This document shows, piece after piece, positions 32,986 to 49,311 of a stretch of DNA of 64,000 bases. Location: assembly GCF_013315695.1 (NCBI RefSeq), contig NZ_CP054353.1. One strand, written 5' to 3'. The DNA is from Escherichia coli (GTDB lineage: Bacteria > Pseudomonadota > Gammaproteobacteria > Enterobacterales > Enterobacteriaceae). A program made the translations under genes and the position numbers. Under the pieces are notes generated by a model. That model made no database searches. It saw nothing but the letters and a program-made list of their open reading frames with translations, and was not told where the DNA came from. Position 1 is the stretch's first letter; every line of letters starts with the position of its first letter.

Positions 32986-33276
32986 CTTTCTTATAAATTA
33001 ATACAGATTAATCCTGGTTATTTGCTTTATTTATCACCAGTCATCCGGTATAGTTCTTCATAATCTCTTCAAAATCATCGTGTTGTAATATTCTCTCATT
33101 ACTCTCCATCAAATTTTCTTTTTTTCTCCATAATTGGCGAAAAAGTGTTTTTTACACTTTCATTGTTTTACCGTTGCTCTGATTAATTGACGCTAAAGTC
33201 AGTAAAGTTAATCTCGTCAACACGGCACGCTACTTAAGAAAGCCGTAATAAATAACTGAAAGGAAGGATATAGAAT

Positions 33277-35387: not shown

Positions 35388-35481
35388 TGTTGACTCCGAG
35401 TGCTGGTTATCTATCCAGTGTAACAGGCGGGGAGCGATTAAAAAAGAGGCGGGTTGATGACAAAGGTTACACCGTCAGACG

Positions 35482-46365: not shown

Positions 46366-47757
46366 TTAACGGTGTGCCAGTTCGGCGTCGTCTTCGCTAT
46401 CCAGAATGGCTTTATCGGTTTGCTTCAGCCACTGGCTGGTCAGCGTGCCAGCGGTCATCGAGCCACTAACGTTTAGCGCCGTACGCCCCATGTCGATAAG
46501 CGGTTCAACGGAGATTAACAATGCCACCAGCGTTACAGGCAGGCCCATCGCAGGCAGCACAATCAGTGCGGCGAAAGTTGCACCACCACCGACACCGGCA
46601 ACGCCTGCGGAACTAACGGTAACAATACCGACCAGCGTCGCAATCCACATCGGGTCCATCGGGTTAATGCCAACCGTAGGCGCAACCATCACCGCCAGCA
46701 TCGCCGGATACAAACCGGCACAGCCGTTCTGACCAATGGTTGCACCGAAAGAGGCGGCGAAACTGGCGATGGATTCAGGAACGCCCAGACGACGCGTTTG
46801 TGCTTCCACATTCAGTGGGATAGACGCAGCACTGGAACGGCTGGTAAAAGCAAACGTCAGAACTGGCCATACCTTACGGAAGTATTTCAGCGGGCTCACG
46901 CCATTAATGCCCAGCAGAAGGCCATGCACTGCAAACATAATCAGCAGACCGAGGTAGGACGCGACAACGAAACTTCCCAGTTTGATGATGTCTTGCAGGT
47001 TAGAACCTGCAACCACTTTGGTCATCAGCGCCAGAACGCCGTAAGGGGTCAGCTGCATGACCAGGCGAACCAGTTTCATCACCCAGCTTTGCAGGGTATC
47101 GATAGCGGTTAAGACGCGTTCACCTTTCGGCGCATCATCCTTCAGCAGCTTGAGCGCAGCTACGCCGAGGAATGCGGCAAAAATTACCACGCTGATAATT
47201 GACGTCGGATTGGCTCCGGTCAAATCGGCAAACGGGTTTTTCGGGATAAAGGACAAGACCAGCTGCGGAACGCTCAGGTCAGAGACTTTACCAACATAGT
47301 TACTTTCAATGGCGTTCAGACGTGCAGTTTCTGCACCACCCTGAACCAGACCTTCAGCCGTCAAACCAAACAGGTTGGTGACCAGCACACCGACCAGCGC
47401 CGCAATCAGCGTGGTAAACAAAAGCGTACCGATGGTCAGAAAACTAATTTTGCCTAACTGAGATGCGTTATGCAGACGGGCAACCGCGCTCAGAATAGAG
47501 GCGAAGACTAACGGCATAACGATCATTTGCAGCAGTTGAACATAGCCGTTACCAACAATGTTAAACCACTGTACAGAATCTTTAAGTACCTGGCTGTCAG
47601 AACCATAAATGGTATGCAGGGCGAGGCCAAAAACCACACCCATCACCAGACCCACCAGCACTTTTTTCGCCAGACTCCACTGTTTATGGCGGGTCTGAGC
47701 CAGCGCAAACAGCAGTACAACGAACACCACGATGTTCGCAATTAATGGAAAGTTCAT
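46366..47757 (-). CDS. tcyP: L-cystine/dicarboxylate:cation symporter (DAACS family)
   Basis: 463-aa polytopic ORF; sequence and position match E. coli ydjN/tcyP. Confidence 0.92.
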
Positions 47758-47889
47758 CCCCGTTCTCCTGATCTTATTATTTCTATCACTGCGTAGCAGT
47801 CATAGTGTTGGCGCAAGATTAACAGAACTGTGAGCTGGCTCTTATATTCAAATGGAATTGCTTATTCCAGAAAGGTGATTTTTGCCTTT

Positions 47890-48480
47890 TTAGTATTCAA
47901 CCTGATGCTTAATAAGCCGATGAAACTGGATCTGCAAAGTATTGATCATTTGCGATGACCAACGAACAGCGCTGTTTTCGGGTAATGAATGAGGCATCCA
48001 TACCGACCAGACAAATAATGCCATGCAGATAAAACGTTCCAGTTGGTTGCCCTTTTGGGGAACCAGGATAGGCAAGCGGAAACGCCAGCGGCATGGCCAG
48101 AGCAGGGGAACACCGGCGGGTGTCAGCATATCGGCAAGTATGTGGCTCAAATAACCCAGCACCATGCCCTGCAATGCATCAGCCGGAATGAACCAGCTTT
48201 CAGGAATCTTAAGGTAAAAGGTTGCCAGCAGCGCAAATACCGCCAGCAGACTGTGGGTAAAACCACGATGCCCAAAAGCGCGGGCGATCGGTTTTGATAT
48301 CCACTTTAATCGCTGCCCAAGAAACGACTTTGGGTGATCGATGTCCGGTAACAAACACGTCAGGATTGCGGAAGGGACAATATGCCACCAGTCACCCTGT
48401 GCCAGCACGGGCGTCAGCTCGGCATTTTTGGCAAATACCGCACAAGCAATAGAAAAGAGAAGGTGACCTTCCGCCGTCAT
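47890..48480 (-). CDS. ydjM: LexA-regulated inner-membrane metal-dependent hydrolase-like protein
   Basis: ORF trimmed to MTAEGHLLFSIA (196 aa); a LexA box lies just upstream. Confidence 0.85.
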   Translation of the reverse strand: MTAEGHLLFSIACAVFAKNAELTPVLAQGDWWHIVPSAILTCLLPDIDHPKSFLGQRLKWISKPIARAFGHRGFTHSLLAVFALLATFYLKIPESWFIPADALQGMVLGYLSHILADMLTPAGVPLLWPCRWRFRLPILVPQKGNQLERFICMALFVWSVWMPHSLPENSAVRWSSQMINTLQIQFHRLIKHQVEY

Positions 48481-48496
48481 GATAAAACTCACTAAA

Positions 48497-48512
48497 CTGT
48501 CGATACGTACAG
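48497..48512 (-). promoter_or_regulatory. LexA (SOS) box CTGTACGTATCGACAG
   Basis: Perfect CTGT-N8-ACAG palindrome 17 nt upstream of the ydjM start; a second, imperfect box (CTGTATAAAAATCCTA) adjoins at 48513..48530. Confidence 0.65.
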
Positions 48513-48642
48513 TATAGGATTTTTATACAGTGCGCGGAAGTGGTGACGGTGTAACTCTTTCTCTTAAATTGACGATTAATCCGTCAGTTGAATGCAAATT
48601 CAGATAAAGAACCAGGAGCAGTGTGATCACTGCCCCTGGTCA

Positions 48643-49311
48643 TTAACCGAGAAGGTCTTTTGCGGTGAGTTCTGTCAGCGATGAGAGTTTGACGTTTGCT
48701 AATACAAAACGTGGATCATTTTGCGCTTCTGGCGCAGGAACGACGATGGAACGCATGCGGGCTGCTTTAGAAGCGATCATGCCATTTACCGAGTCTTCCA
48801 GCGCCACGCAGGTCAGTGGGTCAACGCCCAGTTTTGCTGCACAGTCGAGATATACTTGCGGATGCGGCTTGCTGTAAGGCAATTTTTCAGCCGAGGCGAG
48901 GGCATCGAAACTGTCGCGTAAGTCAAACATGGTCAACACTTTTTCCAGCATATGTAGTGGTGACGCGGAGGCCAGTCCCACCAATAAACCTTGTTCTTTG
49001 CATAACGCAACGGCTTCACGCACGCCTGGCAATAATGGGCGTGTCTCTTCAACCAGTGAAATGGCACGAGCAATAACCCGTTCTACTACTTCCTGACGGC
49101 TTGGCCCATTCCAGGGTTGCCGGGCGTACCAAAGATCGACCACCATATCGATGCGTAAACCTAAAGTGTCCGGCAGCTCGTTACGACGGGAGATATCCAC
49201 CCCCAGGCTTGCCATCACATCCAGTTCAGCTCGATCCCATAAAGGTTCTGAGTCGATAAGTAATCCATCCATATCAAAAATTGCAGCAAGAATCTGACGC
49301 GGGGTTGACAT
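48643..49311 (-). CDS. yniC: HAD-superfamily sugar phosphatase (2-deoxyglucose-6-phosphatase)
   Basis: 222-aa ORF with HAD motif I (FDMDGLLIDSEP). Confidence 0.9.
   Translation of the reverse strand: MSTPRQILAAIFDMDGLLIDSEPLWDRAELDVMASLGVDISRRNELPDTLGLRIDMVVDLWYARQPWNGPSRQEVVERVIARAISLVEETRPLLPGVREAVALCKEQGLLVGLASASPLHMLEKVLTMFDLRDSFDALASAEKLPYSKPHPQVYLDCAAKLGVDPLTCVALEDSVNGMIASKAARMRSIVVPAPEAQNDPRFVLANVKLSSLTELTAKDLLG

Follow-up and report, generated by a model that had tools for sequence, protein, structure and literature searches.

The region upstream of ydjM in Escherichia coli carries two adjoining sequences that resemble binding sites for LexA, and this arrangement raises the question of whether both are operators that place the gene under SOS control, and how two neighboring dimers would act on the ydjM promoter. 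We analyzed a stretch of the E. coli chromosome of 64,000 nucleotides (the window), in which the segment 47800..48700 is 100% identical to strain MS 21-1 and is found in 5423 of 5426 complete E. coli genomes. The RefSeq annotation of MS 21-1 lists ydjM and hxpB in the matching region and, together with the list of open reading frames, assigns ydjM to 47890..48480 on the minus strand, with its ATG at 48480..48478 and 196 amino acids followed by a stop codon. The gene is flanked upstream by hxpB (49311..48643, minus strand, stop codon 48643..48645) and downstream by tcyP (47757..46366). A weak Shine-Dalgarno-like GTGAG (48486..48492, minus strand), conserved as GTGGG or GTGAG, is located about 7 nt before the ATG. 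YdjM falls in the Pfam family PF04307, "YdjM inner membrane protein" (124.2 bits, cutoff 29; E=5.4e-36), and, over residues 1-195, in the NCBIfam equivalog NF008651 (374.7 bits, cutoff 216), which is named "metal-dependent hydrolase". A sequence search for YdjM relatives with a solved structure found none. The protein was still termed a poorly characterised inner membrane protein in 2024, in a study in which deletion of ydjM did not significantly affect TisB toxicity (PMC11575346). Both the PF04307 match and this description agree with an earlier note on this DNA, made from the sequence, in which the ydjM product was called a membrane protein of unclear role.

Read on the minus strand toward ydjM, the upstream region ends in the order GTTACACCGTCACCACTTCCGCG, CACTGTATAAAAATCCTA, TACTGTACGTATCGACAGTT, TAGTGAGTTTTATC and ATG. 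The earlier note had placed a "perfect SOS box", CTGTACGTATCGACAG, at 48497..48512, 17 nt before the ydjM start, with a second imperfect box adjoining it. We found both the coordinates and the sequence of the box to be right. The distance holds when counted from the last G of the box to the A of the ATG, which are 17 positions apart, with 16 nt lying between the 16-mer and the start codon. The core 16-mer is part of a 20-mer, TACTGTACGTATCGACAGTT (48495..48514, minus strand), which we refer to as box 1 and which represents the promoter-proximal and stronger site. Box 2, the 20-mer CACTGTATAAAAATCCTATA (48532..48513 as read on the minus strand), indeed adjoins box 1 upstream and is imperfect and half-degenerate. 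In the 20-mer frame, the gaps to the ydjM ATG are 14 nt for box 1 and 32 nt for box 2, the two boxes overlap by 2 nt (TA), and their centers are 18 bp apart. The word "perfect" applies to the intact CTGT/ACAG arms of box 1 but not to its center: the 20-mer departs from the consensus at 5 positions, since its center ACGTATCG contains G/C and is not (TA)n. In box 2 the left half, CTGTAT, is strong (11.5 bits) and the right half is poor (1.7 bits), its arm reading CTA where 19 of 19 training sites of our matrix carry CAG, so that two of the three positions are broken. At ydjM two LexA sites, one strong and one weak, thus overlap at their ends in a tandem layout.

We scored these sites against the background of the window. 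The bare pattern CTGT-N8-ACAG has one match in the window where 0.46 are expected, and it occurs at least once in 39 of 100 shuffled sequences. Since the pattern is not significant alone, we used a trained position weight matrix (PWM) instead. The LexA box consensus of gammaproteobacteria is TACTG(TA)5CAGTA, with the palindrome CTG-N10-CAG. We found no LexA site list or heterology index (HI) matrix in the supplement of the PSOSP paper and therefore rebuilt the site set from MG1655 promoters. It comprises 19 sites from 16 classical SOS promoters (lexA, uvrA/ssb, uvrB, dinG, sulA, dinI, umuD, yebG, ruvA, recA, recN, dinB, polB, uvrD, dinD and sbmC), chosen as the best matches to the consensus TACTGTATATATATACAGTA from the literature. 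They include the second lexA box and recN boxes 2 and 3; ydjM and cho were left out. As a positive control within the scan we used the cho (ydjQ) box of the same window, CACTGGATAGATAACCAGCA (35401..35420, minus-strand reading; HI ~8.2), which precedes the cho start (35387) by 13 nt. It ranks first among 63,981 positions with 18.4 bits, followed by ydjM box 1 (15.84 bits) and box 2 (13.18 bits), which is the outcome of the matrix scoring of both boxes that had been proposed as a check. While cho has a single box of the CTGG/CCAG type, the boxes of ydjM come in tandem. The fourth-ranking sequence, GACTGGTGATAAATAAAGCA (33023..33042, in the spy-astE intergenic region), carries AAG for CAG and is probably a chance match, because shuffled windows reach a mean top score of 12.1 bits, more than its 10.3 bits. 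A matrix trained on other genes hence recovers both known SOS promoters in 64 kb, cho and ydjM, and nothing else, a result whose value is that of a calibration.

The first three ranks are stable for pseudocounts from 0.05 to 2, and the scores of both ydjM boxes lie within the leave-one-out range of the 19 training sites (6.3-27 bits), box 1 being grouped with the weaker classical operators uvrD, ruvA and dinG. Dinucleotide-preserving shuffles contain a site of at least 15.84 bits in 16 of 300 cases and one of at least 13.18 bits in 81 of 300. Paired sites of at least 10 bits each, spaced 14-30 bp apart, appeared in 0 of 300. The heterology index (Berg-von Hippel, 19 sites), which also bears on how perfect the first box is, was 9.75 for box 1 and 10.4 for box 2. 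The published value for the ydjM operator is 9.0 (PMC11228462), and the customary cutoff for LexA boxes is 15. With an HI of ~9-10, box 1 is by its predicted affinity a medium-to-weak operator.

LexA control of ydjM is documented in the literature. Tandem LexA sites at E. coli ydjM have been experimentally reported, according to the passage of PMC4951493 that cites Fernandez de Henestrosa et al. 2000, and ydjM is counted among the classical SOS genes (PMC6590174). By RNA-seq, AZT treatment induced ydjM 2.5-fold, and its expression was 8.6-fold lower in a strain with non-cleavable lexA3. In the same study umuD, recN, sulA and dinI showed larger inductions than ydjM (PMC11228462). In ciprofloxacin-treated cells, ydjM was induced up to a log2 value of 2.6 (~6-fold at most), and 4.5-fold in another strain. 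The lexA3 experiment is essentially the comparison in a lexA(Ind-) background by which the earlier note wanted LexA dependence to be judged, and the 8.6-fold drop confirms that dependence. Likewise, the assignment of ydjM as an SOS gene controlled by tandem LexA boxes is upheld by an operator identical to that of K-12, by the cited tandem binding and by the listing among classical SOS genes. The statement that the gene is "tightly repressed" goes too far: reported inductions are modest, about 2-9-fold, and tight repression of ydjM is therefore not established. Taken together, the sites scored here and the binding and induction described in the literature make it very probable that the tandem boxes form a classical SOS operator of ydjM. 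The boxes exist as described, are conserved and do not differ from those of K-12; the feature is a correct but ordinary one that is already known. Since two boxes at ydjM and its place in the LexA regulon have been on record from 2000 onward, the operator carries little weight as a discovery.

We compared the operator with that of K-12 MG1655, where ydjM (b1728) resides in the same hxpB-ydjM-tcyP neighborhood. No base differs between the window and K-12 in the 38-bp operator, the leader or the start codon, and the operator is equally far from the ATG in both. The nearest difference lies at 48534, a position close to the upstream end of box 2, with C in the window and T in K-12; four further substitutions lie upstream, in or near the hxpB terminator hairpin, and YdjM itself differs by two amino-acid changes (V92I, G95S). 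A 111-nt operator query matched 5422 of 5426 complete E. coli genomes, 3967 of them with at least 99% identity. For a wider footprint we sampled one genome per species, which yielded 80 Enterobacteriaceae loci with 84-99% YdjM identity, or 81 with the window, from Escherichia, Citrobacter, Salmonella, Enterobacter, the Klebsiella group, Kosakonia, Leclercia, Atlantibacter and other genera. Box 1 is present in all 80 species loci and in the window (81/81, 12.1-21.6 bits). Its homologue, which usually starts 34 nt before the ATG, is in every locus the best or second-best PWM match within 170 nt upstream. Its CTG and CAG are invariant, and variation is found at positions 6 (T/G), 8-10, 13, 14 and 20, all of which carry little information in the LexA motif. 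A box 2 of at least 8 bits located exactly 18 bp upstream of box 1 was detected in about 76 of the 80 species loci (78/81 with the window). In locus L077 a 1-nt insertion shifts box 2 out of this spacing.

The CTGT half of box 2 is lost in two loci, L032 from Citrobacter amalonaticus S646 (AGATGGATAAAAAACCTATA) and L040 from Intestinirhabdus alba (AGCCTGGCAAAAATCCTATA), both of which retain box 1 and the sequence CCTATACT. This loss suggests, as far as alignments can tell, that box 2 may be dispensable in some lineages. The retention of CCTATACT in the same two loci suggests that TATACT, which is contained in the box junction, is constrained for another reason, probably as a -10 element. Conservation across loci extends over all positions from -78 to -1. 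When per-position conservation was compared with the information content of the LexA motif, the rank correlation was not significant (rho 0.33, p=0.15 for box 1; about 0 for box 2), with the mis-anchored loci L070 and L077 adding noise. Since the whole region is conserved, conservation supports a regional function and does not alone isolate the boxes. We also noted that box 1 differs in predicted strength between genera: Escherichia carries TACTGTACGTATCGACAGTT with 15.8 bits, whereas Salmonella and most other genera (loci L023-L097) have TACTGTATGAATTGACAGTT with 19.7 bits. The Escherichia ydjM operator thus seems, judging by matrix scores, to have drifted to a lower predicted affinity.

Other LexA operators provide a measure for the geometry seen at ydjM. 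In Salmonella enterica, ydjM (STM14_1605) is preceded by two boxes 14 and 32 bp from the ATG, as in the window, with HI values of 9.12 and 12.85. There, the gene responded to nalidixic acid with an induction of only 2.1-fold, and no fluorescence was detectable from a gfp fusion. The lexA operator contains 2 boxes with centers 21 bp apart, compared with 18 bp at ydjM. The recN operator has 3 boxes with centers 22 and 18 bp apart, the spacing of its boxes 2 and 3 being that of ydjM. In the ColE1 colicin operator, 2 overlapping boxes of 21.8 and 15.3 bits are separated by 15 bp between centers. The lexA, recN and colicin E1 operators all combine a strong site with a weaker one at short distance, as is the case at ydjM, and colicin operators share with ydjM the overlap of a strong and a weak box at their ends. 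Such an overlap of terminal positions, as found in colicin operators, has been described as the basis of cooperative repression (PMC4951493). LexA control of a PF04307-type gene extends beyond the Enterobacteriaceae: according to a review, the Staphylococcus aureus SAOUHSC_02424 operon is also LexA-controlled, the LexA motif there being of the Gram-positive type (CGAAAATATGTTCG) and the YdjM-family gene sharing its three-gene operon with genes for proteins that carry UDPGP and HlyIII motifs (PMC11442139).

We next consider where the ydjM promoter may be located relative to the two boxes. In a scan of 48300..48800 for consensus sigma-70 promoters no promoter passed, and the boxes, at 14 and 32 nt before the ATG, cover every -10-like hexamer (TATACT, TATAAA, CACTGT). 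Two candidates were picked by hand. In the first, a putative -10 element TATACT (48511..48516, minus strand), situated at the box junction and matching TATAAT in 5 of 6 positions, would be paired with a weak -35 candidate, TTCCGC (48534..48539, minus strand; TTCCGT in K-12), which is located 17 bp upstream, is conserved and has a 2/6 match to TTGACA. The alternative candidate, GTTACA-17-CACTGT (48527..48555, minus strand; TACTGT in most genera), would use the left half of box 2 as its -10 element. The sequence CCTATACTG at the box junction is invariant in the 80-species alignment, including the C. amalonaticus and I. alba loci, and GTTACA is invariant in 81/81 loci. Each candidate has 7/12 consensus matches, and conservation does not tell the two apart. 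With TTCCGC-17-TATACT, transcription would start near 48504, box 1 would extend from about -10 to +10 and box 2 from about -28 to -9; with GTTACA-17-CACTGT, the start would lie near 48520. In either model two LexA dimers would cover the -10 region and the start site, which represents the usual occlusion arrangement.

Our preferred model is that in undamaged cells one LexA dimer would occupy box 1 (48495..48514) and a second dimer the weaker box 2 (48513..48532), where occupancy probably depends in part on the neighboring dimer. Together, the dimers would span ~38 bp, within which all plausible -10 elements and the probable start of transcription would be located. By covering these elements, they would keep RNA polymerase off an intrinsically weak promoter. 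Upon DNA damage, RecA-ssDNA filaments would trigger self-cleavage of LexA, the sites would be vacated, and ydjM, whose PF04307-family product is a putative metal-dependent hydrolase of the inner membrane, would be transcribed. We infer occlusion and its geometry, the promoter position and cooperativity at ydjM. The outcome of the promoter scan and the non-fluorescent Salmonella ydjM::gfp fusion are both consistent with a weak promoter.

The alternative that survives best is that box 1 alone is functional, and that box 2 is a LexA-like half-site kept for the sake of promoter elements (TATACT, or TACTGT/TATAAA). Three of our observations fit this reading: the 1.7-bit right half of box 2 lacks the A and the G of the invariant CAG, CCTATACT is invariant even in the two loci in which the CTGT half is gone, and the surrounding 78 bp are uniformly conserved. 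Yet the tandem LexA binding at ydjM cited in that passage of PMC4951493 as experimentally reported speaks against a single operator, and the CTGTA of the left half is conserved in nearly all loci. The spacing of the boxes is fixed at 18 bp, the distance found between recN boxes 2 and 3, and box 2 keeps the third-best LexA score in 64 kb with every pseudocount. The Salmonella study scores box 2 as well, with its HI of 12.85 below the usual cutoff of 15. We therefore regard operator function of box 1 alone as improbable and favor a tandem operator.

A second alternative places the promoter farther upstream and lets LexA act as a roadblock. Transcription would start ~88 nt before the ATG, from CTGAA(A/T)-17-ATTAAT (48603..48575), or arrive by read-through from hxpB; elongation would then be halted by LexA occupying +36..+73. 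Shimada et al. predicted CTGAAA-17-ATTAAT as a constitutive promoter in the yniC>ydjM spacer and reported in vitro binding of this spacer by the RpoD holoenzyme alone (gSELEX). The corresponding hexamers in the window are found at 48598..48603 and 48575..48580, and no strong promoter is recognizable at the boxes, in line with this reading. On the other hand, the predicted promoter represents a sequence pick within a low-resolution gSELEX peak, its hexamers lie where the spacer shows little conservation among Enterobacteriaceae, and its -35 element differs between the window strain and K-12. Read-through would have to pass a terminator-like hairpin of 14 pairs after hxpB, and the conserved -10-like hexamers coincide with the boxes. 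A roadblock thus appears quite unlikely, more so than a single operator, and repression by occlusion remains our preferred reading. That the boxes are a chance palindrome without a regulatory role is effectively refuted, since the bare CTGT-N8-ACAG pattern may be common in shuffled sequence but the full-motif ranks, the paired arrangement that none of the 300 shuffles reproduced, the conservation of the boxes in 80 species and the published LexA dependence (PMC11228462) all speak against it.

The one element in the ydjM region that lies outside existing knowledge is a strongly conserved block upstream of the boxes (48541..48568, minus strand; TTTAAGAGAAAGAGTTACACCGTCACCA, family consensus TTTGTGACAAAGAGTTACAcCGTCACC). 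In the 80 Enterobacteriaceae species this block is conserved as strongly as the boxes themselves, and it contains GTTACAnCGTnAC in 81/81 loci. A palindrome of the form GTGAC-N13-GTCAC is found within the block in 58/81 loci. Its left arm is degenerate in Escherichia, the Citrobacter/Enterobacter-type arm being TTTGTGAC. The block could conceivably be the operator of a second, undescribed ydjM regulator, or part of an unusual promoter, a suggestion that we regard as speculative and rather doubtful. If it were true, a further signal would converge with the SOS response at ydjM, and this input would have been lost in part from Escherichia.

Several observations concern the neighboring genes. The terminator-like hairpin (48610..48641, minus strand) is located directly 3' of the hxpB stop codon and separates hxpB from the ydjM promoter region. 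Three of the five spacer differences from K-12 (48624, 48622 and 48617) map to this hairpin. We considered whether the boxes might regulate hxpB and rejected this possibility, as hxpB is encoded upstream on the same strand, its end at 48643 being followed by the hairpin. An Rfam search of 47700..48750 gave no match. In the ydjM-tcyP spacer (47758..47889) we found no terminator-like structure after ydjM, and SOS-induced read-through from ydjM into tcyP is conceivable. The same spacer region contains the promoter-like sequence ATGACT-16-AATAAT (47803..47776, minus strand), which corresponds to the promoter that Shimada et al. predicted as constitutive for tcyP (ydjN). Farther away in the window, between thrS and yniD, the gene for the type III secretion effector espL1 (53693..55591, minus strand) is annotated as intact in the matching strain.
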